A stretch of 64,000 nucleotides of DNA from a virus. Lineage: Duplodnaviria > Caudoviricetes. Under the pieces are notes generated by a model. That model worked only from the letters and a program-made list of their open reading frames with translations, was not told the DNA's origin and made no database searches. Below, one piece after another: positions 37,812 through 59,474 of this stretch. The stretch is taken from the IMG/VR virus record IMGVR_UViG_3300033075_001896, positions 1 through 64,000 of that record; one strand, given 5' to 3'. The position numbers and the translations under genes were made by a program. The stretch's first letter is position 1, and each line of letters begins with the position of its first letter.

Positions 37812-37962
37812 CCCCGCCCGCGCCCTCCCCCCGGCGACCGTTCGCCCCGCGAACGACACCGCGCCGCCCGCGGTCGATCCCGCGCTCCTGCCGACCCTCG
37901 ACGCGCTCGCGCACCTTCTCGTAGCGAATTTGAAGCGTGATCGGGCAAAGTCGCGCCCATGA
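37804..37962 (+). CDS. Small ORF coupled to the integrase (52 aa)
   Basis: Manual translation VGSPARALPP...LDALAHLLVANLKRDRAKSRP; ATGA overlap with the integrase start. Confidence 0.45.
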   Translation: MGSPARALPPATVRPANDTAPPAVDPALLPTLDALAHLLVANLKRDRAKSRP

Positions 37963-39635
37963 CCCTCCGCGCCGCCCTCTACGCCCGCCGCTCCACCGAG
38001 GAGCACCAGCGCGAGTCGATCGCCACCCAGGTCGAGAACGCCACCGCCTACGCCCGCGCGAAGCGCTGGACGATCACCCACACCTTCACTGACGAGGGCG
38101 TGAGCGGGGCGGAGTTCGTGCGCCGACCGGGGCTCGCGGCGCTCCTCGCGGCGTGCGCCGAGCGTGAGGTCGACGCGGTGATCGTGCGCGACCTCGACCG
38201 CATCGGCCGCGACACGCTCGAAGTGCCCGTGATCGTGCGGCGCCTCGGGGAGCAGGGCGTCGCGGTCTGGTGCTACGCGACCGACGCGCAGGTGCGCGCC
38301 GACGACCCCCTCTCCGCGTTCATCGCGGCGGCCACGTCCTTCGCGCGCGACATGGAGCGGCACGCGCTCGTCTCGCGCATCAAGGAGTCGCTCCGGCGCA
38401 AGGCCAAGAACGGCCTCGTCGCGGGCGGCGACGTGTACGGCTACGGCCGCGACCGGCGGCCCGACGGCGTGCACTACGTGATCGACGAGGCCGAGGCCGA
38501 GGTCGTCCGCGACATCTTCGAGCGCCGCGCGCAGGGCGAGGGGCTCCGCACGATCCTCCGCGCGCTCAACGCCCGACGCGTCCCCTCGCCGCGCGCGGGG
38601 AGCCGCGGCACCGGGTCGTGGTCGGTGAGCGTCCTGCAGGGCATGCTCTCGAACGAGCGCTACCGCGGCGTGCTCGTCTGGGGGCGCACCGGGGCGGAGT
38701 ACGCGGGCCGCACGCGGAAGACCGTCGTGCGCGACGAGAGCCAGGTGGTGCGCGTCGAGCGCGAGGACCTTCGGATCGTGTCCGATGAGCTCTGGCACCG
38801 CGCGCAGGCCCGCACCGACAAGGACCTCGTGAAGCGCGGGCTCACGGTCGCGCACGGCAAGCCAAAATTCCTCCTGGCCGGGCTCGCGCGGTGCGCCGTC
38901 TGCGGCGGGCCGATCCGCGCCCTGCACCGCCGCCGCAACAAGACCACGATCCGCGTGTACGGGTGCGCGTGGCGCGACGAGCGCGGCCCGGCCGTGTGCA
39001 CCAACTCCACGCGCCGCCCCGTCGAGGCGTGCGAGGACGCAATCCTCCAGTGGTTCCGAAACCACGTGCTCGACGACACGGCCGTCGCGTACGTGCTCCA
39101 CCGCGCGCAGGCGCTCCTCGCCGAGGAGCGCACGAAGGTCGGCGACGACCCCACGCTCGCGCTCGCCGCCGAGCTCGCCGAGGTCGAGCGCGAGGTCGCG
39201 CGTCTGACGCAGGCGGTGGTCGCGGGCGCGGGCTCCGTGCAGGCGGTCGTGGAGGCCCTCACCGCGCGCGACCGGCGGGCGAAGGAGCTGCGCGCCGAGA
39301 TCGCCCGCGTCCGCGCCGAGAACGCGGAGCCGTTGCCCGAGTGGCCCGAGGCCCTCGACGACCTCCGCGCGCGGCTCGCGTCGCTGCGGGAGGAGTTCCG
39401 CAAGGGGGTGGACGAGGCGCGCGAGGTGCTCCGACGGTTCCTCGTCGGCCCGATCCTCTTCGCGCCCGTGGTGTTCGGGCCCCGTCACCACCGTTTCCAG
39501 ATCACCGGAAAGGCCCTCGGTGGGAGGGGATTGTTGGCGTCCCTAGATGGGACCGAACAATCACCTTCCACTGCGAGAGGCCCCCTCCCTACCAGAGCGG
39601 TCGACGAGACTCAAGCGTTTCTTACGGCGGCGTAG
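37959..39635 (+). CDS. Large serine recombinase (integrase)
   Basis: ALYARRST catalytic motif, DEGVSG, DLDRIGR, YGY, recombinase domain, LLAGLARCAVCG zinc ribbon, coiled coil. Confidence 0.95.
   Translation: MTLRAALYARRSTEEHQRESIATQVENATAYARAKRWTITHTFTDEGVSGAEFVRRPGLAALLAACAEREVDAVIVRDLDRIGRDTLEVPVIVRRLGEQGVAVWCYATDAQVRADDPLSAFIAAATSFARDMERHALVSRIKESLRRKAKNGLVAGGDVYGYGRDRRPDGVHYVIDEAEAEVVRDIFERRAQGEGLRTILRALNARRVPSPRAGSRGTGSWSVSVLQGMLSNERYRGVLVWGRTGAEYAGRTRKTVVRDESQVVRVEREDLRIVSDELWHRAQARTDKDLVKRGLTVAHGKPKFLLAGLARCAVCGGPIRALHRRRNKTTIRVYGCAWRDERGPAVCTNSTRRPVEACEDAILQWFRNHVLDDTAVAYVLHRAQALLAEERTKVGDDPTLALAAELAEVEREVARLTQAVVAGAGSVQAVVEALTARDRRAKELRAEIARVRAENAEPLPEWPEALDDLRARLASLREEFRKGVDEAREVLRRFLVGPILFAPVVFGPRHHRFQITGKALGGRGLLASLDGTEQSPSTARGPLPTRAVDETQAFLTAA
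39531..39560. other. Putative attP inside the 3' end of the integrase
   Basis: Imperfect inverted repeat TTGTTGGCGTCCC-TAGAT-GGGACCGAACAA; TGGCGTCCC resembles the reverse complement of a tRNA 3' end. Confidence 0.55.
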
Positions 39636-39669: not shown

Positions 39670-40101
39670 ATGCGTAAGTCGCACCTGCCGCGGAAGGGGC
39701 CGCGGCGTCCCGAACCCCGTCGCCCCGCTCGACCCGACCCGTCGCGCCCGAAGTGGGTCCGCAACCGCGACGCGCCGACGACCGTCCTCGTCACGAAGCA
39801 CGCGATGGACCGCTACCGGCTGCGCTTCGCGCACGCGATGGACGCGCGCTCGGACGGGGAGATCGAGGCGCACCTCCGCGCGCTCCTGGCCGACTCGGAC
39901 GCGATCGGCGAGCGCGACGACCAGGGGGTCCTCTGCGCGCTCCATCGGCCGCGCGCGGAGATCGACGTGCTGCTGGTCTTGAAGCCCGATCAGGCACCCG
40001 GGGCGCCGCAAGGGCGTCGGGTGCTCGTGACGGTCATCTGGCCGCCGAAGCGCGCGACGAGCACGCACGGCCCGACCCCCTACACGCCGCCCGCGGCGTA
40101 A
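39670..40101 (+). CDS. Hypothetical protein, possibly RelE/DUF4258-like fold
   Basis: VTKHAMDRYRLR...VLVTVI pattern. Confidence 0.45.
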   Translation: MRKSHLPRKGPRRPEPRRPARPDPSRPKWVRNRDAPTTVLVTKHAMDRYRLRFAHAMDARSDGEIEAHLRALLADSDAIGERDDQGVLCALHRPRAEIDVLLVLKPDQAPGAPQGRRVLVTVIWPPKRATSTHGPTPYTPPAA

Positions 40102-40116
40102 GATCCCCGGAGACCC

Positions 40117-40422
40117 ATGAACCTCCATGACCCCGTTCTCAACACATACGACCTCGTGGATCGTCTGGTGAAGGTCCTCGGACTCGATGCGGATCGGGCC
40201 GCCGCGGTCGAGCGGCAGGTGCGCGCGCACTCCGAGGCGCACCGTACGTGGACCTTCCTGTGGGCGGTCGCAGAGCCGCCGCGCCCCCTCCCGTTGCAGG
40301 CGTGGATGGACGCCGCGCCGGAAACGCAAGTGTCGCGCACCGCGGTGCTCTCGTTTGAACGGGGACAGCTCGTGTCGATCGCGGCCTTCGACGGCCTGCC
40401 GGTGTGGTCGGCTACGGCGTGA
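40117..40422 (+). CDS. Hypothetical protein
   Basis: GGAG RBS; last gene of the rightward operon. Confidence 0.5.
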   Translation: MNLHDPVLNTYDLVDRLVKVLGLDADRAAAVERQVRAHSEAHRTWTFLWAVAEPPRPLPLQAWMDAAPETQVSRTAVLSFERGQLVSIAAFDGLPVWSATA

Positions 40423-41437
40423 CGAGGTGGATTCCCATCGCGCAGGCGGTGTCCTCACCCGCCCATCCATCGACGGCGATCTTCGCGTTCTCGGGCGCGG
40501 TGGCGTTGTAGCTCCGCTGCCACGCGCGCACGGCCTCGCGCGCGTCCACCCCCGGCCCCGCGTGCCCCTCGCGGAGGAGAATCTGCACGATCTTCACCGC
40601 GGCGAGCGTCACCGCGTCGGGCCACGGGTCGCACCAGAGGATGAGCGGCGCGTTCGGCCGCACGCAGCGATCGAGGAGCGCGTGCACCTGTTCGTGCAGC
40701 TTCCACCGATACGCCTGGAGCGTGACGTAGAGCGGACGGTCGAGGCCCTCGGCGGCGAGCGCCGGGGTGATGTTCGCCCACTCCTTGTCCATGCGTTCGA
40801 ACGTCGGGCGGTAGAAGGCCCCCTGCGCGTTGTAGATGTACGCCTGCCGGAACCTGCCGAGGTCGCAGACGACCGCGAACTCGTCCACGGGAAAGCCCCG
40901 GAAGACGCCCCCGTGCTCGATCGGCCGCGCGGTGCGGCGCACGTCGCCGTGGGCCTCGATCGCGTACCAGGGCTGATCGCCCACCCGCGCGGACGGCGCG
41001 CGACGGCGCAGGGCCTCGCCGAGTTCGAGCGCCCCTTGCTCGTCCATGTCGTCGGCCGGGCCGAGGTCCGAGTCCCACTGCCCCTCGGCGTCGAGGAGCC
41101 CGAAGCGGCACTTGGGTGCGGCGAGCACCTGTCCGACGAGATCGCCCTTCGCGCGGGCCGAGAGGTCACGGCTGTCGAGCCCCCACGACGCCCCCGCGGG
41201 CACGCCGTAGGTGTCGGCCAGGGCTTCGAGCCGGGGCCACGCATCGCGGAGGTCCTCGCAGAAGCCGTGGAAGACCACGCCGCGGACGAGGCCCTGCGTG
41301 CGCAGGCCCGCGATCTCGCGGACGTAGCGCGCGAGCGTGTCGCGCCGGGCCTGGAGGGTGTTCCCGCGGATCGCGCCGCGGTAGATCTGGAGGTACACGC
41401 CCGGGTCGATCCCGGGCGCGGCGGTCGGCGTGGTCAT
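40412..41437 (-). CDS. Putative endolysin: glycoside-hydrolase-like barrel + C-terminal peptidoglycan-binding domain
   Basis: LLDAEGQW; AVRAWQ...IAVDGWAGEDT matches the PG-binding-1 VDGxxGxxT motif. Confidence 0.6.
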   Translation of the reverse strand: MTTPTAAPGIDPGVYLQIYRGAIRGNTLQARRDTLARYVREIAGLRTQGLVRGVVFHGFCEDLRDAWPRLEALADTYGVPAGASWGLDSRDLSARAKGDLVGQVLAAPKCRFGLLDAEGQWDSDLGPADDMDEQGALELGEALRRRAPSARVGDQPWYAIEAHGDVRRTARPIEHGGVFRGFPVDEFAVVCDLGRFRQAYIYNAQGAFYRPTFERMDKEWANITPALAAEGLDRPLYVTLQAYRWKLHEQVHALLDRCVRPNAPLILWCDPWPDAVTLAAVKIVQILLREGHAGPGVDAREAVRAWQRSYNATAPENAKIAVDGWAGEDTACAMGIHLVTP

Positions 41438-41628: not shown

Positions 41629-42399
41629 TCAACGCGGCGGCGGGACGGTGGGCGCCGCGACGCGCACGGCGCGGACGGCGTGGAGTTCGCCCGTCCAGAA
41701 GACGTGCGTCGCGTAGGCGTAGGGGAGCCACGCGCGGCCCTGATCGCCCCAGGTGCTCCCCCACGAGTTCTGGATTCGAAAGGCCTTTCGCGCGTCGGAG
41801 TAGCCCACGAGGCAGAGGGCGTGTCCGCCCACGTAGACGCCCGAGGGGAGCGGGACCGTCGCGTCCTCCCCGAGACGTTCGAACGACTCGTAGATCCGCG
41901 CCCCCATCACGACGGGGTGGCCCGACGCGAGCTCCCACCGGAGCGTGTCGAGGTCCCAATCCAGGGGCTCCCAGGTGAGGAGCCGCGCGCGGCCGCGGTC
42001 GCGCTCGAGCTTCGTGGGCGGCGGGCCGCGGAAGTCGAGGCTGTGCTCCGCGAAGGGCCAGAGCGTGTCGGGGGCGAAGCCCGCCGTCTCGGCGTGCGTG
42101 AGCACGTCGGCGAGCATCGCCCCGGCGTCGCGCTCGACCGTGCCCGCGCGCATCCGGCCGCCCCGGTAGAGGTCGAGCGGGGACGGGAACCACGACGCCG
42201 ACCCTTGGAAGAGGAGCCGGAGGTAGAGGGCCAGCGCGGCCGCGTGGCCGGTGCAGCTCCCGAGCGGGCCCTGGTCGGTCGCCGGGTGCAGGTGCGCGAG
42301 CTCGACGTGGGGCGCGAGCGCGAGGAGATCGGACGCGGAGGCGCGCGTGCGCGTCCCGCGGTGCCCTTCGGGGGGCGGTGTCCAGCCGAAAGCCCTCAT
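41629..42399 (-). CDS. Papain-like C1A cysteine peptidase
   Basis: DQGPLGSCTG, GGHALCLVGY, IQNSWGSTWGDQG. Confidence 0.92.
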   Translation of the reverse strand: MRAFGWTPPPEGHRGTRTRASASDLLALAPHVELAHLHPATDQGPLGSCTGHAAALALYLRLLFQGSASWFPSPLDLYRGGRMRAGTVERDAGAMLADVLTHAETAGFAPDTLWPFAEHSLDFRGPPPTKLERDRGRARLLTWEPLDWDLDTLRWELASGHPVVMGARIYESFERLGEDATVPLPSGVYVGGHALCLVGYSDARKAFRIQNSWGSTWGDQGRAWLPYAYATHVFWTGELHAVRAVRVAAPTVPPPR

Positions 42400-42479
42400 G
42401 GCGTCCCGCGGACCTTCCAACGCACGACGGCGAAGGCGAGCATAAGCGCGCCGAGGAGGATGAAGCCGAGGAGCATCAT
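42396..42479 (-). CDS. 27-aa single-TM peptide
   Basis: MMLLGFILLGALMLAFAVVRWKVRGTP; ATGA overlaps on both sides. Confidence 0.5.
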   Translation of the reverse strand: MMLLGFILLGALMLAFAVVRWKVRGTP

Positions 42480-43063
42480 CGGACGCCACCGTCGGGCGGG
42501 TGAAGGTGGTCGAGGTCGCGGCGCAGGATCACGCCGCGGGACGCGGCGCGCAGCTCCAGCTCGCGCAGTTCCGCGTTGGTCGCGCGGCCTTCGGAGCGCC
42601 ACCCGGCGTCCCCGTCGCACCCGGGCACGAGCGTATCGACCAGGGCGGCGACGGTGTCGGTCACGCGCTCGAGGACCCGACCGAGCGCCACCCCGTTGTC
42701 CGTGAGGGTCTGCGCGGCGACGACGAGCGCGGTGCGGACGCCCCCGACGGCCGCGTGCGCGGCGCATCGGTCGCCGCCCCGTTGCTCGTACGCATCGAGG
42801 GCGGTCTGGAGACCCTCGGCGGCCGTCGCGACGCCATCGAGGGCGCGGCCCACGACCGTCCGTGCAGGTTCGGGGAGGATCAGGTCGGTGATGGCGTGCG
42901 CGGCGGGCACGGCCCACGTCAGGGTCGTGAGCACCGTGCGCGCGGTGTCCGTCCAGCTCGACGGCGTGACGGCGGGCGTGTCGGGCGAGGGTGGGGGGAG
43001 GGGGCGGCACGCGCCGATGAGCGCGAGCACCAGGGCGAGGAGAAACAGTCGGAGGATCTTCAT
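42476..43063 (-). CDS. Lipoprotein (possible spanin-like lysis accessory)
   Basis: MKILRLFLLALVLALIGAC lipobox; helical body; lysis context. Confidence 0.6.
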   Translation of the reverse strand: MKILRLFLLALVLALIGACRPLPPPSPDTPAVTPSSWTDTARTVLTTLTWAVPAAHAITDLILPEPARTVVGRALDGVATAAEGLQTALDAYEQRGGDRCAAHAAVGGVRTALVVAAQTLTDNGVALGRVLERVTDTVAALVDTLVPGCDGDAGWRSEGRATNAELRELELRAASRGVILRRDLDHLHPPDGGVR

Positions 43064-43750
43064 GCCCCTCCGCGGGGTGTCATCCCCGCGGCGCGTTAGC
43101 AGGCTTCGAGGTAGCCGCCGCGCAGGAAGCCGTGGTAGTCGCCCGCGAGGATCGACCCCCCGCCCGCGCCGCAGGTGTGCCCGTTCTTGTCGACGGTGAT
43201 CGCGGGGACCGCGCCGTGCCGCACCCAACAGCGGTGCGCGTTGTCGTCGGGCATCGTGCAGTTCGCTGCGCGCGAGTCGATCGTCCAGTCGCGGCCGTTC
43301 GGCAGGCGCACCGTGAGGCAGTAGTCATCATCCCCGACGTGGAACGACCCCACGAGGCCGTGCAGCCACTCGGCGTCCCACATCGCGCCGATCGGCGCCT
43401 CCTTGAGCGTCGTCGGTTCGCCGCCGTCCGAGCGCGCGTAGAGCGCCTCCTCGCGCACCTGATAGGGGTCCGTCGGGGCGAAGGGCTGCTTGCACGCCTC
43501 GCAGTGCGTCGGGTAGCGCGGGTCGTCGTGGGGGTAGCGCTCGGCGTCGTCCGCGTCGCGCGGGGGGCGCCCGTTGAGCGCGACCGTCGCGACGCCCTTC
43601 GTCGTCGCGTCGCAGCCCCAGGCGCCCTTCACGGTGCAGGGGCGGGTGGAGGTCGGGGAGAAGCGCCGAAGGTCCACGCGGGCCTCGCCCGTCGGCGTGA
43701 GGAAGAAGCAGGGGACGCGTTCCATGCCCCTCCGCGGGGTGTCATCCCCG
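43061..43750. repeat. 28-bp exact direct repeat (43061-43088, 43723-43750) flanking one gene; each copy is a late TGAC element
   Basis: CATGCCCCTCCGCGGGGTGTCATCCCCG at both positions. Confidence 0.9.
43096..43725 (-). CDS. Conserved-looking Cys/His-rich phage protein
   Basis: HCEAC; W.IDSRAANC...HRCWVRHG...SILAGDYHGFLRGG. Confidence 0.65.
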   Translation of the reverse strand: MERVPCFFLTPTGEARVDLRRFSPTSTRPCTVKGAWGCDATTKGVATVALNGRPPRDADDAERYPHDDPRYPTHCEACKQPFAPTDPYQVREEALYARSDGGEPTTLKEAPIGAMWDAEWLHGLVGSFHVGDDDYCLTVRLPNGRDWTIDSRAANCTMPDDNAHRCWVRHGAVPAITVDKNGHTCGAGGGSILAGDYHGFLRGGYLEAC

Positions 43751-44524
43751 TAGGCGGTCGGCGAGCTCGGTGACGAGCGGGATGCCGCCGCCGACGCCGA
43801 GCACCGCGAGGTGCGAGAGCCCCCGCACGTCGAGCGCGTCGCCGAGGAGCGCGAACCCGACCATCGCCGCCGCGCCGCCCGCGGCCGTCACGGGCCGGGC
43901 CTTGGCCGCCTTGAGCGCGCCCTCGACCCCGAGGGCCATCACGGACAGCGCGACCACGACGGGCGTCGGGACGGTGTGGCCGCGGCTCTCGAAGTAGAGC
44001 GTCACGACGGTCGTCAGGATGGCGATGAGGCCGCGCAACATGCGGCGGCTGTGGAGGTCGGCGATCTCGACGCGCGGGTCGCGCGGGGCAGGCGACGTAC
44101 TCGCGTCGACGGCCGTCGCCACCAGGTCGGACTTCGGCGCGGGCGGCACCGCGCTCGTCGGCACGGCCGTCGTGCGACCCGGGCGCGCGAGGAGCTCGTG
44201 CACGAGGCTGCGCAGCACGGCGGGCTCGAAGGGCTTGGAGAGGTAGCGCCACCCGCGCTCCCCTGCGATGCGCTCCAGCTCCTTTCCGTCCGCGCCCGAG
44301 AAGAGGAGCACCGGGAGCTGCTGCGCGGTGAGCGCGTCGTGGAGGCGCTCGGTCGCGACGCCGAGCACGAGGTCGAGGAGCACCGCGTCCGGTCGGTCGG
44401 CGAGGATCGCGGCGAGCGCGTCGCCCACGTCGCGGGCCTCGGTGACGGCGTGCTCCGGGCGGAGCATCGCCGCGACGGCGGCGCGTACCGCGTCGTTGTC
44501 GTCGATGAGAAGGATCTTCGGCAT
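43742..44524 (-). CDS. Receiver (REC) domain fused to a C-terminal multi-TM domain
   Basis: KILLIDD, phospho-acceptor D51 (DAVLLD), S76, K97-P98; 3-4 hydrophobic segments after a Pro/Ala linker. Confidence 0.85.
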   Translation of the reverse strand: MPKILLIDDNDAVRAAVAAMLRPEHAVTEARDVGDALAAILADRPDAVLLDLVLGVATERLHDALTAQQLPVLLFSGADGKELERIAGERGWRYLSKPFEPAVLRSLVHELLARPGRTTAVPTSAVPPAPKSDLVATAVDASTSPAPRDPRVEIADLHSRRMLRGLIAILTTVVTLYFESRGHTVPTPVVVALSVMALGVEGALKAAKARPVTAAGGAAAMVGFALLGDALDVRGLSHLAVLGVGGGIPLVTELADRLRG

Positions 44525-44599: not shown

Positions 44600-44842
44600 T
44601 CACCCCGGCGGCGGAGCGGGCGCGGGCTCGATCACCCAGGTGGGCGGGAGCGGATCGGGGGCGGGCGCGAACCCCGGCGCCCCGGGCGGAGCGGCTTCGC
44701 GCACCTCCACGAGCGGGTCTTCGGTGTCGCCGACCTCGCGCGGGGTGCGGTAGATCGTGGCGCCCTCCCCGCGAAGGGAGTGGAGCAGATAGTTGCGAAT
44801 GCCCCGGTGCGGCGAAGGGGGGATGCGACGGTAGACGGCCAT
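44600..44842 (-). CDS. Small Pro-rich hypothetical protein
   Basis: GGAGG RBS, follows the tail gene. Confidence 0.45.
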   Translation of the reverse strand: MAVYRRIPPSPHRGIRNYLLHSLRGEGATIYRTPREVGDTEDPLVEVREAAPPGAPGFAPAPDPLPPTWVIEPAPAPPPG

Positions 44843-44844
44843 GG

Positions 44845-46041
44845 TCAGACGCCTCCAGGGCGACCCGTGCGGATCGCGTGAATCGCCACGTCGAGATTCA
44901 CACCGGAGCCCGTCGTGAGCCCCACGATCACGCAGTACGTCCCGGCCGCGCAGCGCACGGCGTTCCGCGCCGCGGCGGCATACCCGAGCCCCGCGTGATC
45001 GATCGTGCTGTAGATCGGGACCCACTTCGTCGGGAGCGCACCCGACGTGCCCGTGTTGATGCCGTACTTCCACGACACGGCGTCGTGCGTGCGCGTGATG
45101 AGGAACCACAGCTCCCCGCCCGTGCGCACGGCGTCGGTGAGGGCGGCTACCGAGATGATCGCGAGGGAGCTGTACGCCCCCGCATCGACGTACGCGGGCT
45201 CCACCTGCCCGTTCGTCCAGAAGGCGAAGTTGCAGGTGTTCTCGTCGTCGCTCCCGATGTTGAACACGATGCGCGTGGCCGAACTGCCGTCCCCGTTGAG
45301 GACCTGCACGCGCACCGCGAGGAGGCATTCCTCGGGCGACGTGAAGAGGTCGGGGATCTCCGCGCCGCAGAAGCCCATCGCCGCGGGGTCGACGTCCAGC
45401 GTGAGCTTGCCATCCGCCCACGTCGCGGTCGCCCCGCCCGTGGCGGTGAGCGCCGCCCACCCGTCGCCCGTCATGTCCTCGCTGCGCAGGCCCGCGGTCG
45501 TGGGCGCCGCCGACTGCCACACGCTCCCGTCGTAGGTGAGCACGTGCCCCGCCGTGGGCGACGTGGGCGCCTTGATCGCGCCGAGCTCGGCGAGCACGTC
45601 ATCGGCGGTCGCGCCCATCGAGCGGAAGCGCCACGCCCCGTTCACCCGCTTCCAAAGCGTGCCCGACCCGGAGCCCGAGGACACGTACCACTGGTCGCCC
45701 TCGCGCACGGGCGAGAGGGCGTCGCGCTCGGCGAGCGTGCCCGAGAGGACGCGCGCCCGCGCCGCGTAGCTCGTGCCCGAACCCGTGGAGAGGAGCATCT
45801 GCCCCGCGGCCGTGGCCGACGGGAGCGTCGCGCCGCCCATCGAGCGCCACGTGCTCCCGTCCCAGAGCGTCACGGCCGGCGTGTCGGTCGCGTAGTGGAG
45901 CGAGGGCTGCGCGGGGGACGCGGGCCGCGACCCCGCCACGGTCGCGCCCGCCCACAGGACGGCCGTCTCGGGCTCGATGAGCGTCGGCGGCTGCGTCGGA
46001 TCGACGAGGCGGCGACGGCTCGTGCCGGGGGAGAGCTGCAT
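44845..46041 (-). CDS. Tail fibre/receptor-binding-like protein
   Basis: Fibre-type repeats (LHYATDT...WDGSTW, GHVLTYDGSVW), C-terminal beta-rich domain. Confidence 0.6.
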   Translation of the reverse strand: MQLSPGTSRRRLVDPTQPPTLIEPETAVLWAGATVAGSRPASPAQPSLHYATDTPAVTLWDGSTWRSMGGATLPSATAAGQMLLSTGSGTSYAARARVLSGTLAERDALSPVREGDQWYVSSGSGSGTLWKRVNGAWRFRSMGATADDVLAELGAIKAPTSPTAGHVLTYDGSVWQSAAPTTAGLRSEDMTGDGWAALTATGGATATWADGKLTLDVDPAAMGFCGAEIPDLFTSPEECLLAVRVQVLNGDGSSATRIVFNIGSDDENTCNFAFWTNGQVEPAYVDAGAYSSLAIISVAALTDAVRTGGELWFLITRTHDAVSWKYGINTGTSGALPTKWVPIYSTIDHAGLGYAAAARNAVRCAAGTYCVIVGLTTGSGVNLDVAIHAIRTGRPGGV

Positions 46042-46044
46042 CGG

Positions 46045-47907
46045 TCACTTCTCCTTGAAGCCGAGGACGCGGACGGTGGCCGTGCCGCTGTAGCCGCTCG
46101 GGATGCGGTAGTCGAACTGCTGCGCGCCCCCGAGGTGCAGGTGCACCTCGCGGCGGACCTCCTGCGCGGCGGTGTTGGCCTCGACGAGGAGCGGCACGCC
46201 CGTGCCCGGGGCGTTGATCTTGCGCACCTCGACGCCGCCGTTCGCCGCCCCCGACGCGTTCACCTGAAGCTCCAAGAGCGCCAGCGTGACGGTCGAGCCG
46301 ACGGGGGGCACGAGGGACGCGCACGAGACGCTCGTCCACGAGGTCTGCGTCCCCGCCGTGAGCACGTCGAGGCCCGACGTGAAGATCGTCCGGTCCCAAT
46401 ACCACCAGCCCTCGTAGCGGTGCCCGGGGAGCGGCACGCCGGAGCCGTCGGTGCGGATCGGGCCGAGGTAGCGGTGCGTCCCGGCCGCGCCGCCCTTCCA
46501 CGTGTACGAGTCGTCCGGGGGCGTCGGCGAGACCTCGACCGCGAGCGTGCCGCCCGAGGCGTAGAGGTAGAGGTAGCGCCAGGCCCCGGCCGCGTAGCCC
46601 GAGGGCGTGATCGTGAAGCCGCCCGTCGCGCTGTAGCTCCGCTGCCCGAGGACCACGAGCTGAATCGGGGCGACGTAGATTTTCGTGCCTGCCCCGATGT
46701 CCTTCACCGAGTAGTTGCCGCCGATCAGGAGCCCGTTGAGGGAGTCGGTGACCGACGCGAGCGCGACGGTTTCGAGCGCCGAGGTGTCGAGCGCCCGCAC
46801 CGAGACCTTCTCGCCGCCCGAGAGCGCCGAGAGGAGCGTGACCGTGGTCGCGTCGGTCTCGGTGTACTCGGACTCGGCGAGCACCGCCCCATCGACGATC
46901 ACCTCCAGGCAGTGCGCCCCGGGCGTGTACGCGAACGGGAGGTTGAGCGCCGTCTGCGAGCTCGTCCCGGTCGTCTCGTAGTAGCGGCGCGTGCCCGTGG
47001 TCGCGCGCTGGAAGCCGCGCGCGTCCTGGAGGTTCTGCGGCGTGATCGTCGTCTGACTCGGCGAGAGGCCGACGAACGCGAGCGGGAGGACGCCGCGCGT
47101 CGAGGGCCGCACGGGCGAGGACGCCTCGGTGCCCTGCCGCACGCCGAGCGTGCCGTTCGCCGCGAGGTAGAGGAGGTCGATGCGCGGGTTCGAGGTCGGG
47201 GCCGTGAAGGTCGGCGACGTGCCGCCCACGTAGGCCACGTGCGTGTCGTCGATGTTGAAGCGCCCCGCGGCCACGCGCAGGGCCAGTGAGGGCGGGTCGG
47301 TGGGCGTGACCTCGCCGTCGCGCTTGACCGACTCGTCGTACACGTCCTCCGCGCGGTTGAGCACGGGGACGTCGAGGAGCCGCACGTCCGTCGTGCGGAT
47401 CGCCGTCAGGCCGTTCGTGATCTTCACCCGCCCGAGGAGCACGGGGTTCCCCGAGGGGGCCGCGGGGTAGGTCGCGGTCGAGACCGGCGCCGAGGTGCCC
47501 GAGACCCGCAGGATCTCGTACGACTCAGGCTGCGTTGTGTAGACCGTCGTCGCGTCCGGGGCGGTGGAGGGGTCCGCGGAGGTGCGCGCGAAGCGGAGGT
47601 AGATCGCGACGAAGCGCTCCTGCCCCGAGGCGACGGCCGTCGCCGTGTTGCCCGAGTCGAGGCTCAGATCCACGGTGACTGTGGTGGGGACGTTGAGGCG
47701 ACGTCCGAGCGCGTCGTACGCCACGCCCGCCGAGAGCTGGAGCGTCAGGTTCGGCGACGCCTGCTCCGTGAGCTGGAGCCCCGCGGCGACGCCGTAGCCG
47801 AGGAGGTCGGTGACGATCGCGCGGTCGGCGTTCTCGGCGTTGTCCTGCCAGGAGTGCACGTCCGTGTGCTCGATCACGAAGTCGCGGTGGTATACGCGTC
47901 GGTCCAT
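46045..47907 (-). CDS. Tail fibre/baseplate-associated structural protein
   Basis: YGVAAGL...GVAYDALGRR N-terminus, NPRIDLL repeat, LPFAYTPG module; follows baseplate J and I. Confidence 0.7.
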   Translation of the reverse strand: MDRRVYHRDFVIEHTDVHSWQDNAENADRAIVTDLLGYGVAAGLQLTEQASPNLTLQLSAGVAYDALGRRLNVPTTVTVDLSLDSGNTATAVASGQERFVAIYLRFARTSADPSTAPDATTVYTTQPESYEILRVSGTSAPVSTATYPAAPSGNPVLLGRVKITNGLTAIRTTDVRLLDVPVLNRAEDVYDESVKRDGEVTPTDPPSLALRVAAGRFNIDDTHVAYVGGTSPTFTAPTSNPRIDLLYLAANGTLGVRQGTEASSPVRPSTRGVLPLAFVGLSPSQTTITPQNLQDARGFQRATTGTRRYYETTGTSSQTALNLPFAYTPGAHCLEVIVDGAVLAESEYTETDATTVTLLSALSGGEKVSVRALDTSALETVALASVTDSLNGLLIGGNYSVKDIGAGTKIYVAPIQLVVLGQRSYSATGGFTITPSGYAAGAWRYLYLYASGGTLAVEVSPTPPDDSYTWKGGAAGTHRYLGPIRTDGSGVPLPGHRYEGWWYWDRTIFTSGLDVLTAGTQTSWTSVSCASLVPPVGSTVTLALLELQVNASGAANGGVEVRKINAPGTGVPLLVEANTAAQEVRREVHLHLGGAQQFDYRIPSGYSGTATVRVLGFKEK

Positions 47908-47929
47908 CGACCCTCGCGCGTGGTCACCC
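47908..47929 (-). promoter_or_regulatory. Late TGAC-N15-ATG element
   Basis: GGGTGAC CACGCGCGAGGGTCG ATG. Confidence 0.7.
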
Positions 47930-47975
47930 GTGGAGTTCGGCGACCCTCGGAGAACTTGTACCGCAGGTGGCGGCC

Positions 47976-49118
47976 ATGTACTTTGATCTCGCGATGTTCC
48001 TGATCTACTTGGACGCTGGCACCATCAACCACATTGCCGATGGCAAATGCCCTCCCGAACAGGTCGCGGACCTACACGCTGCCATGCGGGAGGTCGGCGC
48101 CTCGCTGATTCTTTCACTCGCGCATGTGTGGGACTTCTGCAACAACACGGACGACGCCACAAAGCAGCGTGTTGCGACGGCGATCGATGCGTTCCCTTCC
48201 CGTATGTTGATCGCGGACAGCCCCGAAGCTACCGAACGTGAGGCGCTCGACAGGATCGGTGATGGCGCGGAATTCGATGCAGACACCTACGCCCCGCCGC
48301 ACTGGCAGGGGCGATTGTTCCAGGCGCGTGACTTCATGCGTGTCTGCGAGCCGAAGGTGATGGATGCCGCCGACCGTTTCATCACGTGTGTTCGTGCCCT
48401 TACTGAAGCTCATCGGTTGGGCGTCCAGGCGAGGCGCGCATCCACCTCGGGTCCGTCGGCTCAAAAGCAGGAACGCGATGCGGTACGGGCCTTCCTCGAA
48501 GGGCTATTCGCAGCGCAAAACGATGAAGAAATCAAAGCGCTTGTCGAAATGCGCCTTGCCTCTCTATCTCCAGAAGCACGGGCGGCGAGCGACAAAATGC
48601 TCAAGGATGGTTTTGAAAAGGGCATCGCAATGTTTCCTCCGGAAGTACGCGAACAAATGCCGCAGTGGTCGCTCGACCTGTTTTGCCGCGCCGTCATGCA
48701 AACTCGCAGAGACGCGGAAACGCATGGAATTACCCCAGGACGGGCCGTCCAACTCGCGGTGAAACAGCCCGCACTAAACAGCGTCAACTGGGCGGGTGCA
48801 CGGATTCGTGGTGGGATGGACCGATGGTACGAGATCGCGGGTGCCGTGGCTCCCGGCATGGCGATCCGGGTGAAGATCATCGAGCAAAACACAGGCAACG
48901 CGATGCGCAACCCGCTGCACAGCGACACGGCCGACACGATCCATGTGCTCTACCTGCCCTACATGGATCTCTCGGTCGTGGATGCGAATAACTTCTCTGC
49001 CTACCAGTCGTTGCAGAGCAAGGTGAGACCCAGGCGCAAAGGGGTCGTCGTGAAAGATCCAGGGCGCGACCTGAGGCCGCTGATTCAGAGAATCAGGTCA
49101 CTTCCCATCGACCCGTGA
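47976..49118 (+). CDS. PIN-like domain protein (moron, lower GC)
   Basis: IYLDAGTI near the N-terminus and DTADTIHVLYLPYMDLSVVD near the C-terminus; visibly more A/T-rich; opposite strand to tail genes; start uncertain (47967/47976/47994). Confidence 0.6.
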   Translation: MYFDLAMFLIYLDAGTINHIADGKCPPEQVADLHAAMREVGASLILSLAHVWDFCNNTDDATKQRVATAIDAFPSRMLIADSPEATEREALDRIGDGAEFDADTYAPPHWQGRLFQARDFMRVCEPKVMDAADRFITCVRALTEAHRLGVQARRASTSGPSAQKQERDAVRAFLEGLFAAQNDEEIKALVEMRLASLSPEARAASDKMLKDGFEKGIAMFPPEVREQMPQWSLDLFCRAVMQTRRDAETHGITPGRAVQLAVKQPALNSVNWAGARIRGGMDRWYEIAGAVAPGMAIRVKIIEQNTGNAMRNPLHSDTADTIHVLYLPYMDLSVVDANNFSAYQSLQSKVRPRRKGVVVKDPGRDLRPLIQRIRSLPIDP

Positions 49119-49120
49119 CC

Positions 49121-50164
49121 TCACCCGAGGGCGGTGTTCCGTCCGAGCAGGGACGTGCCGAGGCGCCACGACGGGTGCCGCGCGGCGGCGTCGTCGAGCG
49201 TGACGGTCATCGTGGAGGGGCGCATCACCTCGATCACCTGCGCGAGCGCGCGCCGCTCGTCGCTCGTGAGCACGCGCGGCAGGACGAGCGCGAGCGTGAA
49301 CGCGTCGTCGGCCGGGGTCGCCCCGCGGGCCGACGCGGCGAGCGCCGTGGCCAGGACCTCGGTGGTCGCGAGCTCGATCCGGTCGCCCGCCGTGAGGCCC
49401 GTCGGATTCTCGCGGCGCCACACCCGCACGACCGCCCCCCGCGCGAGCGGCGCGGCGAAGGTGATCGTGGACGCGGACGTCTCCGACCACGCGGGCGCGT
49501 CCACGCGAAGACGGTCGACCGTCACGACCAGCGTCCCGATCCCCACCGTGTAGCTGAAGGGGAGCGTGAGCGCCGACTCGCCGCCGTAGGCCGTGTATTC
49601 ATGGCCGCGCGTGAGGAGCTCGACCCGTCGCGGCTCGACCGCGAGGAAGGCCGTCCGGTCGAGCTCCACCCCGTTGCGCCACGCCCGCAAGGTCCCTGTG
49701 TGCGGCGTCACGCGCCAGCGCGCGTCGGTCACGTCGATCGCGGTCTCGCCGCCCGTCGCGGTGTAGACGAACGAGAGGCCCCCGAGGTGCGACCGCCCGA
49801 GGCGCCACGCCTGACGTCGCTCGCCGCGCAGGTACGCCTCTTCGCCGAGGAAGAGGCGTACGGCGTCGAGGAGCCCGGGGGCCGTGCCCTTCTCGCGGTA
49901 GAGCGGCACGAGGAGCGCCACGACCTTGCGCTGGAGCGCCTCGGGGAGGGTCGTGTCGAGCGTCCAGCCCTTCGCCCGCGCAAGCTCGGGGAGCCACCGC
50001 GCCGCGCAGGTGAGCGGGTCGTCGAGCGTGAGGAGCTGCCCCGTGTCGTCGTAACGGTCGCCGAGCGCGTCGTCGGCGAGGCGCACGAGGGACGCGAGGG
50101 GTTCGGCCGGGGCCTCGCGCCGCCAGAACCGGGGGAGGGCGTCCCAGAGCGTCGGGCGGGCCAT
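49121..50164 (-). CDS. Phage tail/baseplate protein (P2 gpI-like)
   Basis: LWDALP...DPLTCAARWLPELA...GW...LYREKGT. Confidence 0.8.
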   Translation of the reverse strand: MARPTLWDALPRFWRREAPAEPLASLVRLADDALGDRYDDTGQLLTLDDPLTCAARWLPELARAKGWTLDTTLPEALQRKVVALLVPLYREKGTAPGLLDAVRLFLGEEAYLRGERRQAWRLGRSHLGGLSFVYTATGGETAIDVTDARWRVTPHTGTLRAWRNGVELDRTAFLAVEPRRVELLTRGHEYTAYGGESALTLPFSYTVGIGTLVVTVDRLRVDAPAWSETSASTITFAAPLARGAVVRVWRRENPTGLTAGDRIELATTEVLATALAASARGATPADDAFTLALVLPRVLTSDERRALAQVIEVMRPSTMTVTLDDAAARHPSWRLGTSLLGRNTALG

Positions 50165-51641: not shown

Positions 51642-51717
51642 GACGCGGTGGCACGCCGCGCGCAACGCGGGGACGGGCGCGCGGCCGCACAGGGCGACCC
51701 GCGTTCAGGAGCACGCC

Positions 51718-52812
51718 ATGACACGACGCCAGAAGATCGAAGCGCCCGACGCGCAGCCGACCTCGCCCGCCACCCTCCCCGCGTCCGAGAAGGTGCGCGT
51801 CACGCCCGCCCTCGCCCGCGAGTGGCTGGAGAAGTACAACCGGCGCAACCGCCCGCTGCGCGAGGCGGTCGTGGATCGCTACGCCGAACAGATGAAAGAG
51901 GGCGAGTGGCAGGAGACGGGGGACACCGTGAAGTTCGGGGCGGACGGTCTCCTCTACGACGGCCAGCACCGCCTCTCCGCGGTCGCGCGGTCGGGCCGCA
52001 CCGTGGAGCTGTGGGTGGTGCGCGGCCTGCCGCCGGGCGCGCGCGAAGCGATCGACATGGGCGAGGCGCGGCGCGCGTTCGACAACCTCGCCATCTCCGA
52101 CGGGTTGAGCCTCGCGGCGGAGGACCGGACGTGGCTCACGGCCATCGCGCGCCACGCCTACGGCGTGCACCACAAGCTCACGGTCTCCGTCGCGCGGGCG
52201 GTGCTCGCCGCGTACGGCCCCGGGCTCAAGGTCGCGCGCGAGGTGTTCAAGGGCCACCAGCGCGGGCTCTGCCGCGCCTCGTACGTCGGGGCGTTCATCT
52301 TCGCGTACCGCAAGGAGGGCGAGCGCGTGGCCGAACTCATGCGCCGGTTCCGCGACGGCGCGAACCTCGACGCGAAGGACCCGATCCTCTTGCTCCGCAA
52401 CTCGATGATGACGACGTCGTCGGGCGGGTACGTCGTCGGCCACGCGGAGTTCGAGCGGACGTGCGCGGCCGTGGCCGCGGCGCTCGACGGCGAGAAGCGG
52501 GCGCGCCTCATCCGCAGCGCCGCGGCGCTCGAACGCTTCCGCGTGCCGAACGACACGTGCCTCGCCACGGCGAAGGAAGAGGCCGTGACCCTCGACGGGC
52601 TCATCAAGACCTACGGTGAGGTCTGCGTGCGCGCCGCGCTCGACGCGAAGGACGTGCTCACGGAGCGTCAGAAGGAGGTCCTGCGCGAGGTGCTCTCGGG
52701 CAAGGACACGTCCTCGATCCGCGCGCAGGACGGCGTGACCCGCCAGGACATCTTCAAGGTCCGACGGGCGGCGCTCCGCAACCTGCACAAGCACCTGTCC
52801 GCGCAGGGGTAG
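51718..52812 (+). CDS. ParB/Srx-like N-terminal domain + sigma-70 region 4-like HTH
   Basis: VTPALAREWL..NRRNR...YAEQM...DGQHRL; C-terminal LTERQKEVL...GVTRQDIFK. Confidence 0.8.
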   Translation: MTRRQKIEAPDAQPTSPATLPASEKVRVTPALAREWLEKYNRRNRPLREAVVDRYAEQMKEGEWQETGDTVKFGADGLLYDGQHRLSAVARSGRTVELWVVRGLPPGAREAIDMGEARRAFDNLAISDGLSLAAEDRTWLTAIARHAYGVHHKLTVSVARAVLAAYGPGLKVAREVFKGHQRGLCRASYVGAFIFAYRKEGERVAELMRRFRDGANLDAKDPILLLRNSMMTTSSGGYVVGHAEFERTCAAVAAALDGEKRARLIRSAAALERFRVPNDTCLATAKEEAVTLDGLIKTYGEVCVRAALDAKDVLTERQKEVLREVLSGKDTSSIRAQDGVTRQDIFKVRRAALRNLHKHLSAQG

Positions 52813-52840
52813 CGGCCCGTCGCGTGCAGCGCCACCGCGC

Positions 52841-53881
52841 ATGATTGGACTCGCGCATGCAGACGGGAAGGAGTACCCCAACCTCGCGCTCGCGTCTCTC
52901 TCCGCGTATTTCAAAGCGCTCGGCGAAGAGGTGCGACTCATCCGCCCCGACGATCGCCCCGACCTTTTCCGGGGCGGCTTCCCCGAACGCATCTACGGCT
53001 CGTCGATCTTCGACGAATCCGCTTCGCAGCGAGAGGACATTGAGCAGCACTGGGGGCACGTCCTGTGGGGCGGGACCGGGGTGCGTCTCGCTTCCTCACT
53101 CCGCGAGGTTGATGCGTCGGTGGATTGGGACGCAATCCGCCCCGACTTCTCGCTCTACCCCGATTTCGCTGCATCCATGGGGTTCCTCACGAGGGGGTGC
53201 CGTCTGCGCTGTGGTTTTTGCGTGGTGCCCGAGAAGGAGGGGAGGCCGCGCGTCGTGTCGGACGTGCACCGAGTGTGGCGCGGCGAGGGGCACCCTCGGC
53301 ACCTGCACCTTCTCGACAACGACGCCTTCGCGAAGCCGTTGCGAGACTTCTGGCGAGATGCGGTTGAGGAGTTCCGGAAGGGTCGGTTCCGCGTGTGCTT
53401 TACGCAGGGGATCAACGTCCGACTGATCGACGACGAGGCGGCGGCGCTCATCGCGCGGACGCCTTATTACGGCAACGACTTCAACAAGCGCATCCTCTAT
53501 ACGGCGTGGGATAACCTTCGCGACGAATCCATCTTCAAGGCGGGTGTTGAGCGACTGCGCCGCGCGGGTGTGTCACCCCACAGGCTCCGCGTGTTCATGC
53601 TCGTGGGCTACCGCGAAGACGAGACGTGGGAGGAGAGGTTCTATCGGTTCGCGGAGATCGCGGCTCTGCGTGCCGAACCCTACGTGATGGTGTATGGCGC
53701 CGAAGGCGCACGCCCCGAACTCGACGCGTTCCAACGGTGGTCGAATCGTTGGTTCTTCCGCTCGATCGCGTGGCCGGACTACGCGCGTGATGGGAAGTGG
53801 GACACGCGTATTTATGGCGACGCGCGCGCGGACTCAGACGCCGCGTGGAACCGCGTGGTAGAGCGAATGCTCACCCGTTGA
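52841..53881 (+). CDS. Radical SAM protein
   Basis: YPNLAL, TRGCRLRCGFCVVPEKEG, LLDND, QGINVRL. Confidence 0.88.
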   Translation: MIGLAHADGKEYPNLALASLSAYFKALGEEVRLIRPDDRPDLFRGGFPERIYGSSIFDESASQREDIEQHWGHVLWGGTGVRLASSLREVDASVDWDAIRPDFSLYPDFAASMGFLTRGCRLRCGFCVVPEKEGRPRVVSDVHRVWRGEGHPRHLHLLDNDAFAKPLRDFWRDAVEEFRKGRFRVCFTQGINVRLIDDEAAALIARTPYYGNDFNKRILYTAWDNLRDESIFKAGVERLRRAGVSPHRLRVFMLVGYREDETWEERFYRFAEIAALRAEPYVMVYGAEGARPELDAFQRWSNRWFFRSIAWPDYARDGKWDTRIYGDARADSDAAWNRVVERMLTR

Positions 53882-57887: not shown

Positions 57888-58357
57888 AGCAGAAACCGTG
57901 CACGCGCGCAGTCCGCGTCGGTGAGTCCGACCGCGAGGTCCGTCCGCACGAACCGTTCACCCGGCACCCCCACGAGCGGAAGGTCGTCGATCACACACCA
58001 GCGCTCGACCTCGGGGTGCGCGTCGAGCCACGCCCGAATCTCGAACCAACGCCCTTTCTCGGTGCGGCGGTCATCGTCCAGCGACACGGGGTTGTCGTCG
58101 GGGGTTGCGCCCACGATGGGCGCGGTGAGGCCCGCGGCGCGCAGCACGTCCTCGGTGTGTGCGAGATACGTCCGCCACGAGGAGCTGATCACCAGCGACG
58201 CCCCCATCTCCGCGCAGAGCCGGTTGAGTCGGTCGATGCACGCGGGGTCAAGCCAGTCCACAGGCTTCGTCGTGCCGAGACGTGGCTTGAGCAGTTCGTA
58301 CCACCCCGCGTGGTTGAGCACGCCGTCGATGTCGAGGAAGATCACGACGGGCATCAC
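57884..58357 (-). CDS. HAD-family phosphatase (Swiss-Army-knife RNA-repair type)
   Basis: IFLDIDGVLN, VISSSWR, VIDD, GLT. Confidence 0.88.
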   Translation of the reverse strand: MMPVVIFLDIDGVLNHAGWYELLKPRLGTTKPVDWLDPACIDRLNRLCAEMGASLVISSSWRTYLAHTEDVLRAAGLTAPIVGATPDDNPVSLDDDRRTEKGRWFEIRAWLDAHPEVERWCVIDDLPLVGVPGERFVRTDLAVGLTDADCARARFLL

Positions 58358-59169
58358 GCGTCCTCACTCTCGTCGGTCGCGTCCTCGGTCTCCTCGCACC
58401 ACCGACAGACGAGCTTCTTGAAGCCCGTGTATTCGGCCGTCGCCTGGCAGGTGAGGCAGGCGCCCGTCTTGTCGCGGTAGCGCGCGGCCACCTGCGCGCG
58501 TCGGTCTTCCTGCGACATGAAGGGCGGTGCCTCGTCCGCGCGCCGCAGGGCCTCGTCGCTGTAGCGGCGCATCCCGCGGTCGAGGAACATCACCGTGAGG
58601 AACACCCACGCGCCCATCGCGAATCCCGTGACGTACGCGCCCATGCGTTCGGTTCCCACGGCATCGGCCACAGCGATGAAGCCTGCGCACGCCGAACCGA
58701 AGAGGACGAGTTCGTGCTTGAGCGCGCGCCACATCGAGGGCCGCGCAGTGGCGAGGAGGGCGCTTTCTTCGGCGGTGAGACCGCCCTCCGCGACCTCATC
58801 CAGCACCCGCACTGTGCTCGGCGTGAAGAAGTCGCCCACGTCGAGCTTCTTCTTGTCCTCGGGCGTGAGCGCGTGCGTCCACGTCTCGATCGCCGCGCCG
58901 GGCTTGCTCGTGCAGACGAAGCCCTCCCCGGGCGACTCGTCCGCGCGCTGCGCGCGGCCCGCGTCGGTGATCGTGTAGCGGCGGAGCGGGAGGTCGCGCC
59001 CCTCGACCGGGAGGGCCTCGGACGTGACGAGGCCGCGGTCTTCGAGCGCCTGAAGGTGCACGTAGACGGTGCCGCGCTGGAGCGCCCCGTCGGCGCGTTC
59101 GACGAGCTCACGGCCGGTCTTCGGCCCGGTCGCGAGGAGGTGCAGGATGGTGCGGTGAGCGTCGTTCAT
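58354..59169 (-). CDS. PadR-like winged-HTH fused to a 2-TM region
   Basis: GPKTGREL...GTVYVHLQALEDRGLVTS...RRYTITDAGR; two hydrophobic segments. Confidence 0.7.
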   Translation of the reverse strand: MNDAHRTILHLLATGPKTGRELVERADGALQRGTVYVHLQALEDRGLVTSEALPVEGRDLPLRRYTITDAGRAQRADESPGEGFVCTSKPGAAIETWTHALTPEDKKKLDVGDFFTPSTVRVLDEVAEGGLTAEESALLATARPSMWRALKHELVLFGSACAGFIAVADAVGTERMGAYVTGFAMGAWVFLTVMFLDRGMRRYSDEALRRADEAPPFMSQEDRRAQVAARYRDKTGACLTCQATAEYTGFKKLVCRWCEETEDATDESEDA

Positions 59170-59474
59170 GGCGACGGCGGGATCGCAAGGCCCACGCCAC
59201 CGGGCGTGCATCCGGCGTTGAGGCGCTCGATCGCGGCGCGCTCGTCGCGCGCGAGCGCGGGGAGGCGCTGGCAGACGAGGACGAGGACGGCCTGGGTGAG
59301 CACGCGCACCGAGGCCCGCGCGCCCGTCCCGCCCCCCGCGTAGCGGCGCACGGTCGACTCGCTCTCGCCCGCGAAGGCCGCGACCTCCGCGAGGTCGAGC
59401 TCGGCCAGGAGCGCCACGAGGAGCCGTTGCGCGTCGGCGGTGAGGGCCTGGGAGGGCTTGGGGCGGCGGGCCAT
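59166..59474 (-). CDS. Small HTH-like protein
   Basis: LAEVAAFAGESESTVRRYAGG. Confidence 0.55.
   Translation of the reverse strand: MARRPKPSQALTADAQRLLVALLAELDLAEVAAFAGESESTVRRYAGGGTGARASVRVLTQAVLVLVCQRLPALARDERAAIERLNAGCTPGGVGLAIPPSP

Follow-up and report, generated by a model that had tools for sequence, protein, structure and literature searches.

Can a bacteriophage couple the lysis of its host to the host's own two-component signalling by placing a receiver on a membrane protein? The question is raised by the gene at positions 43742 to 44524 on the minus strand of a 64,000-nucleotide stretch of viral DNA (the window), which is the first 64 kb of the 91.9-kb IMG/VR virus record IMGVR_UViG_3300033075_001896, with a CheckV completeness of approximately 78%. 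A first-pass annotation, made from the sequence alone, described the product as a receiver domain fused to a holin-like membrane domain at the head of the lysis cassette. We call the gene REC-4TM, after its receiver (REC) domain and the four predicted transmembrane (TM) helices. Its product is a response regulator with an output of a new kind, one embedded in the membrane, and the gene lies in a lysis/envelope block of the phage. The role we favour, at a probability of roughly 0.4, is that of a membrane component controlling host lysis, which would act as a holin or as a regulator of one (antiholin). The gene and its parts are as follows.

43742..44524, minus strand: REC-4TM gene, 260 amino acids (aa) and stop codon (open reading frame, ORF; GC content at third codon positions, GC3, 0.95-0.96; Pfam REC; AlphaFold2, AF2, model)
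44177..44524, minus strand: REC domain, residues 1-116 (D8, D9, D51, S76, Y94, K97-P98; PF00072; AF2)
44078..44176, minus strand: disordered Pro/Ala/Thr linker, residues 117-149 (predicted local distance difference test, pLDDT, <50 for 117-145; R117-x-T-x-x-P122 motif)
43745..44077, minus strand: basic juxtamembrane helix (150-164), four-helix membrane domain (165-251) and short charged tail (252-260) (AF2; charge pattern)

A receiver joined to a membrane domain

The ORF is a genuine gene, with a GC3 value like that of the other genuine genes in this window of approximately 72% GC. The record is a temperate myovirus. Its minus strand encodes the large terminase, portal, protease, major capsid protein, tail sheath, tape measure, baseplate W/J/I and fibres, its plus strand a large serine integrase, a primase and methyltransferases.

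Is the receiver authentic? The Pfam Response_reg profile (PF00072) matches residues 4-108 at 37.8 bits, above the gathering cut-off of 30.2, and reaches 39.8 bits in a six-frame search. An AF2 model of the 260-aa protein was built on 18 relatives. Residues 1-116 have pLDDT values of 87-98 and form five strands alternating with five helices, the (β/α)5 fold. In Foldseek the top stand-alone receivers, RR468, YycF and Spo0F, reach target TM-scores between 0.82 and 0.86, and VIA-align matches the REC domain of KdpE with a Z-score of 19.2 and a root-mean-square deviation (rmsd) of 1.7 over 116 residues. The catalytic set of D8, D9, the phospho-acceptor D51, S76, Y94 and K97-P98 is present. Among the 18 relatives, which extend down to 34% identity, D51, S76, K97 and P98 are invariant and D9 is at least 90% conserved; the catalytic residues are kept across relatives of 34-89% identity. 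Profile, fold and catalytic set together make the domain a bona fide member of PF00072, and the family-wide conservation of every catalytic residue makes the receiver look phosphorylatable.

Searches of the whole 91.9-kb record detected no HATPase_c, no HisKA and no second REC, so that the receiver appears to be functional and an orphan. With no kinase in the record any phosphoryl donor would most likely be the host's, either its kinases or small donors such as acetyl phosphate, with the caveat that a record some 78% complete leaves room for a phage kinase on the missing part. Searches of Pfam, NCBIfam and PADLOC detected no DNA-binding or other output domain in the 260-aa protein; PADLOC gave a weak, partial match inside the REC region only. 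On all these points the first-pass annotation, which had listed an intact receiver with D8-D9, D51, S76 and K97-P98, a Pro/Ala linker, three to four hydrophobic helices, no DNA-binding output and no histidine kinase, is borne out, the helices now being counted as four.

The linker is variable apart from the motif R117-x-T-x-x-P122 (window 44159-44176), in which R117 is invariant and P122 at least 90% conserved. Family members that lack the REC domain retain this motif near the N-terminus, and it could be a cleavage or docking site. Beyond the linker AF2 places helices at residues 150-180, 187-209, 211-231 and 234-259 with pLDDT values of 57-77, and in the alignment of the 18 relatives the segments 165-178, 187-200, 212-228 and 236-251 are practically uncharged. 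Helices and charge pattern together make a four-TM reading well supported, although not proven. The flanks follow the positive-inside rule, with a mean of 3.9 Lys plus Arg before TM1 and 3.1 in loop 2/3 as against 0.8 in loop 1/2 and 0.5 in loop 3/4. The REC domain, loop 2/3 and the C-terminus are for that reason assigned to the cytoplasm, and the pattern fits an N-in/C-in topology. The predicted periplasmic loops are small, approximately seven to eight residues. The outer-loop pair G182-H183, the inner-loop pair R210-P211 and the glycines G199, G217, G228 and G243 of TM2, TM3 and TM4 are invariant among the relatives.

Residues 150-260 match no family in Pfam (E up to 5), PHROG, NCBIfam or PADLOC, and by these comparisons the four-TM part is an orphan membrane domain outside every described family. 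Look-alikes of the membrane part in the ESM Atlas are confined to unnamed, sub-threshold clusters (score 0.78). In fold searches with the full model (Foldseek, VIA-align) receiver matches fill the listing, so these say nothing of the four-TM fold. A four-copy homo-oligomer prediction for residues 146-260 scored 0.27 against a mark of 0.42, a value that bears neither way on self-association. An internal dual start that would yield an isoform devoid of the receiver was considered and rejected: across the linkers of ten family genes no in-frame start preceded by a Shine-Dalgarno-like sequence recurs at a consistent place, that of L001 (relatives are cited by L numbers) has none at all, and M162, directly ahead of TM1, is not conserved.

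How widespread is the family? A word-indexed search retrieved close relatives only, of 73-99% identity. Exhaustive phmmer searching of residues 150-260 against 1.84 billion representatives gave 25 proteins (clusters) at E up to 1e-3, most of them of 250-320 aa and with the same plan of REC, linker and four TM helices. There was no match to REC-4TM in INPHARED phages (tblastn) and no relative in the GTDB species genomes (pattern search), whilst a pattern search of IMG/VR found one locus, L009. The protein, which we place in the inner membrane, belongs on these database searches to a small family restricted to phages. In the closer relatives P0007 and P0008 the four-TM part is much better conserved than the receiver, and a few members have no receiver. 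One of these, P0016 (173 aa), is a complete gene within contig L018 and starts 5 nucleotides (nt) after the preceding gene. That a complete gene without a receiver occupies the same kind of slot argues that the four-TM module is the functional core and the receiver a frequent, dispensable addition.

Genomic surroundings

On the minus strand of the window the order is 620-aa fibre, 398-aa, 80-aa, REC-4TM, 209-aa, lipoprotein, 27-aa micro-ORF, peptidase and 341-aa genes. The late strand terminates after the 341-aa gene, facing the integrase. The neighbours are as follows.

46045..47907, minus strand: 620-aa tail fibre (phrog_34307; after Baseplate_J and Tail_P2_I in L007)
44845..46041, minus strand: 398-aa fibre-associated protein, p398 (GC3; homologues directly upstream of REC-4TM or p80 in L009, L013, L024, L025)
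44600..44842, minus strand: p80, 80 aa, no TM helix, conserved partner of the fibre-like gene (in L023, L024 and L025 a homologue comes ahead of REC-4TM)
43096..43725, minus strand: p209, 209-aa Cys/His-rich cytoplasmic protein (no family match)
42476..43063, minus strand: 195-aa lipoprotein, with a lipobox Cys at the end of its signal peptide (in L010/L011, L013 and L027 a homologue comes straight after REC-4TM)
42396..42479, minus strand: 27-aa single-TM micro-ORF, ATGA overlaps with both neighbours (kept with an in-frame indel in L001, L002, L007; absent in L013)
41629..42399, minus strand: 256-aa papain-like (C1) cysteine peptidase (PF00112; phrog_16701; PDB 3ois at E 1.5e-30)
40412..41437, minus strand: p341, TIM barrel and C-terminal three-helix module (AF2 pLDDT 92.9; structural match Cwp19)
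37959..39635, plus strand: large serine integrase, convergent with the cassette end (phrog_95 at 1.4e-90; Resolvase/Recombinase/Zn_ribbon_recom in L007)

The C1 peptidase, the TIM barrel and the fibre matches bear out the placement first proposed for the gene, between tail-fibre genes and lipoprotein/peptidase/endolysin-like genes. The best VIA match of p341 is the Clostridioides difficile peptidoglycan hydrolase Cwp19 (Z-score 16.3, rmsd 3.8, 246 residues), with generic glycosidase barrels within about one Z unit of it. PG_binding_1 (PF01471) is present in two of 70 p341 homologues according to precomputed matches, and Pfam run directly on p341 and on the 386-aa protein of L013 gave no PG_binding_1. 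On its modelled fold p341 is a probable cell-wall hydrolase. Neither the peptidase nor p341 has a signal peptide and therefore a membrane lesion would be needed for them to reach the wall. A p341 homologue of 60% identity lies amid host genes (an RND efflux pump and others) in a Myxococcaceae metagenome-assembled genome (L016:8004-9005); the p341 family is therefore not phage-specific, and this position supports the view that the phage host is probably a myxobacterium.

What else in the cassette could act on the membrane? No integral-membrane protein was found there other than REC-4TM and the 27-aa peptide, and no Rz/Rz1-type pair is recognisable. The remaining TM-bearing ORFs of the record, itself some 78% complete (58354-59211, 88256-88948 and others), do not look like holins. 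The statement in the first-pass annotation that no other clear holin is present is weakened, and needs correcting, by the conserved micro-ORF. This has a hydrophobic core and a basic tail, and its ATGA overlaps are with the lipoprotein stop and the peptidase start; it may serve as a minimal peptide of lysis or of regulation. All told, the group of genes is plausibly, although not demonstrably, a lysis cassette.

Nine genomic contexts were compared.

Window lineage (L001-L007): the whole order from baseplate to 341-aa gene is kept
L013 (44% identity): fibre, 285-aa, p209 homologue, REC-4TM, lipoprotein, 64-aa, C1 peptidase, 109-aa, 386-aa
L027: divergent REC-4TM, lipoprotein, C1 peptidase, p341 homologue
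L010/L011: fibre-like gene, 33-aa hydrophobic ORF, REC-4TM, lipoprotein
L023: p80-like, 124-aa with N-terminal TM helix, REC-4TM, lipoprotein
L024/L025: p398-like, p80-like, REC-4TM, 178-aa with lipobox, methyltransferase, HExxH protein
L018: fibre-like gene, four-TM protein without REC, lipoprotein, HExxH protein
L009 (IMG/VR contig): p398-like, REC-4TM, HExxH protein, Amidase_2 (PF01510, 8.9e-14), SLT-like protein
L021: divergent genes upstream, structural-looking gene downstream

The gene directly follows the fibre genes in eight of the nine contexts, and a lipoprotein or lipobox protein is encoded downstream, either directly or one gene on, in seven. The enzymes beyond the lipoprotein vary by lineage, being either the C1 peptidase with the TIM-barrel/peptidoglycan-binding protein or an HExxH protein with Amidase_2. 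The flanking enzymes are swapped while the membrane gene stays, as is usual for holins. The Amidase_2 endolysin gene of L009 provides the cleanest tie to lysis, lying one gene from REC-4TM, as compared with four to five genes to the TIM barrel in the window. L015 has a related lipoprotein, peptidase and p341 cassette that lacks REC-4TM, and there the place ahead of the lipoprotein is taken by small TM proteins. The protein p209 is a less constant companion. Its homologue in L013 is 55% identical and adjoins REC-4TM on the opposite side, and it is absent beside REC-4TM in L009, L010, L018, L023 and L024. Conservation of the neighbourhood, one of the checks proposed at the outset, is thus seen for envelope/lysis genes in several divergent lineages, but not in L021. 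Gene order in these relatives supports a link of REC-4TM to a lysis/envelope cassette, from which holin activity itself does not follow.

An uncharacterised family with an HExxH-type motif, encoded after the four-TM/lipoprotein genes of several lineages, replaces the C1 peptidase at L009:11007-11663, L018:2470-3069, L024:2547-3149 and L026:5262-5945, and may be a metallopeptidase of the same cassette.

Metatranscriptome contigs from two wastewater studies contain relatives of approximately 95% identity, and there single contigs carry REC-4TM together with fibre genes and cassette. These contigs are about tenfold deeper than integrase contigs in one study and of similar depth in the other, with the caveat that the depth of contigs from an RNA library cannot rank genes, that uncovered parts carry no meaning and that carry-over of DNA is possible. 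Given these restrictions, late co-expression of REC-4TM with the fibre genes is only weakly indicated. A 76-nt intergenic gap precedes the REC-4TM gene and lacks the TGAC-N15 element found before p209.

Proposed lysis control and the alternatives

Several questions decide how the protein should be viewed. Does the membrane domain act on the host membrane to bring about lysis? Does it rather protect the cell against other phages? Is the receiver or the membrane domain the business end? We consider these in turn.

Control of lysis is favoured because the gene sits in the slot of lysis membrane proteins, the enzymes around it are exchanged, these enzymes lack export signals and no other sizeable membrane protein is at hand. 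The four-TM module would be the effector and the receiver an add-on regulator sensing host histidine kinases or acetyl phosphate. The gene would be expressed late, from the distal end of the late operon as the first gene after the tail-fibre genes. Phosphorylation of the receiver would produce a conformational change or dimerisation, relayed through the continuous juxtamembrane-TM1 helix, and the relayed signal would promote or block self-association of the membrane domain. Late expression, the role in lysis and gating by phosphorylation are all inferred. A more specific version, doubtful in our estimation, is a phosphorylation-gated holin or fused holin-antiholin in which the four-TM domain makes the lethal lesion and the receiver sets or vetoes triggering.

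A number of observations weigh against lysis control. No known holin family in Pfam or PHROGs matches the membrane domain, and the expectation that residues 150-260 would prove to be a member of a described holin family was not upheld (Pfam, PHROG, NCBIfam, E up to 5). Holin families are many and divergent, so the lack of a match leaves holin function possible, and the original proposal of a holin or antiholin retains its membrane output and its linkage to envelope/lysis genes whilst lacking a sequence relationship to known holins. The uncharged hydrophobic segments are short (14-17 residues) and the C-terminal tail has just nine residues. The C1 peptidase has a papain fold related to xylellain, which is no known lysin, and the p341 TIM barrel is uncharacterised and also found among host genes. 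The cassette is atypical and contains no textbook set of holin, endolysin and spanin, L021 has no envelope enzymes nearby, and the limits on reading contig depth in RNA libraries belong here also. The 27-aa peptide, or the 33-aa and 124-aa proteins of other lineages (the latter with its N-terminal TM helix), could be the real hole-formers, in which case REC-4TM would more likely be a regulator. Finally, a position after the fibres and beside the integrase is also typical of exclusion and conversion genes.

Comparisons with known systems inform on what would be unusual here. In common with CheY, Spo0F, DivK and CpdR the phage protein has a complete (β/α)5 receiver with the acidic pocket, Asp, Ser/Thr, aromatic switch and Lys-Pro, and no DNA-binding output. 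It differs from them in the C-terminal four-helix membrane fusion, the location in a late/lysis block and the absence of a kinase from the record. To our knowledge a true two-component receiver on a holin is unprecedented, and in the literature searched no paper describes a receiver-holin fusion or a phage REC-TM protein. Two-component signalling does reach four-TM holin-like proteins and lysis in the LytSR and CidR control of LrgAB and CidAB, a cellular and transcriptional arrangement. There a DNA-binding regulator acts by transcription, whereas here the receiver is fused to a phage membrane protein, and Pfam LrgA has no match in the 260-aa protein. The resemblance to lambda S105/S107, T4 T/RI and N4 gp63/gp62 lies in a small multi-TM module near wall enzymes at the late end, with a soluble part that could set timing; in contrast to these REC-4TM has no sequence relation to any holin family and no dual-start motif. 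The N4 pinholin gp63, with its regulator gp62, illustrates that the cytoplasmic segment of a holin can be regulatory (PMC12642591). The 'Receiver domain' of gp63 is such in name only, without a CheY-like fold (PMC12642591).

An integral-membrane bundle represents a new output class for response regulators, and the four-TM part a new phage-specific membrane domain family. The timing of lysis is a central trait in phage fitness, and the controls known for it either lie within the phage (holin concentration, dual starts) or respond to superinfection (T4, N4). With a receiver fused to a membrane effector in the lysis/envelope block, host two-component or acetyl-phosphate signals would act directly and post-translationally on whether the cell is lysed or other phages are shut out. 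A gated holin, if that is what the protein is, would be the first two-component receiver wired straight to a lysis effector, and the phage would in effect read the signalling or energy state of its host.

Exclusion is the alternative that survives best, possible although on balance improbable. The four-TM protein and the lipoprotein would then form a superinfection-exclusion or lysogenic-conversion module protecting the lysogen or infected cell, either by keeping DNA from entering or by hiding the receptor that the adjacent tail fibres use, with the receiver tuning this to host state. Position speaks for it, since the gene directly follows the fibre genes in most contexts and is near the integrase at the prophage end. 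So does the identity of the most constant neighbour, a lipoprotein of variable sequence rather than an enzyme, and the gap ahead of the gene, without the TGAC-N15 element. The genes of the Cor and Llp lipoproteins, and of inner-membrane exclusion proteins such as T4 Imm and HK97 gp15, are known to adjoin fibre or receptor-binding genes. The likeness is one of arrangement, a temperate phage encoding an inner-membrane protein and a lipoprotein straight behind its fibre genes; those systems have no receiver, and here wall enzymes follow the pair. Set against exclusion, the gene is co-oriented and tightly packed with the late genes, and its GC3 matches that of its neighbours, unlike a low-GC insertion at 47967-49118. 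RNA contigs join it to the fibre genes at similar depth, above the integrase in one study, a weak point. Wall-degrading enzymes lie downstream in several lineages, and PADLOC offered just the partial match within REC.

Could the receiver itself be the active part? A membrane-tethered phosphate sink or decoy would drain host kinases and reprogram two-component signalling, with the four TM helices serving mainly as an anchor. In its favour are the orphan receiver with an intact active site and a phage with no kinase or other output; single-domain receivers (CheY-type sinks, DivK, CpdR) are known to act without binding DNA, and myxobacteria are rich in two-component proteins. We nevertheless consider a sink unlikely, given the strong conservation of a membrane domain that also occurs without the receiver. 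The four-TM part is the better conserved in closer relatives, its invariant G182-H183 and R210-P211 exceed the needs of a passive anchor, and the complete member without REC, found in the same genomic slot, indicates that the membrane domain has its own function.

That the protein works with the lipoprotein to disrupt the envelope, in a non-canonical step of spanin-like or outer-membrane type, or else is a virion or fibre assembly factor, is most unlikely in spite of the constant pairing with the lipoprotein gene and the lack of a recognisable Rz/Rz1-type pair. The periplasmic loops are tiny, the periplasmic coiled coil of i-spanins is missing, and none of the lipoproteins has the C-terminal TM helix that marks u-spanins.

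Other features of the window

The late block of this phage appears to have received insertions. Between the Tail_P2_I-like gene and the fibre is a 383-aa gene on the plus strand (47967-49118, within 47894-49120), in a stretch of lower GC (0.66) and without a family match. It is absent in L007, and the contigs of relatives have 30 nt in its place (joint 47893 to 49121). The segment 47894-49120 looks like a recent insertion (moron). Some 2.2 kb of the baseplate region (51670-53880) is skipped in relatives' contigs, which join 51669 to 53881, and L007 has a 484-aa Baseplate_J gene at the place of a 942-aa ORF in the window; the late block seems to hold a second insertion here.

At 58354-59211 (minus strand), in a non-structural island between tape measure and baseplate, lies the gene of a possible membrane-bound regulator, a 285-aa protein that combines an N-terminal winged-helix-like (helix-turn-helix) region and two TM helices with a cluster of Cys at its C-terminus. 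In the early region a QueC-like gene of queuosine/7-deazaguanine biosynthesis (11578-12234, minus strand; phrog_1550, 7.3e-49) points to a cluster for DNA modification. Between the integrase-side genes and the p341 gene approximately 310-360 nt are missing in relatives (joints 40047 or 40099 to 40409); this segment, 40100-40408, overlaps a 101-aa ORF at 40117-40422 on the plus strand.

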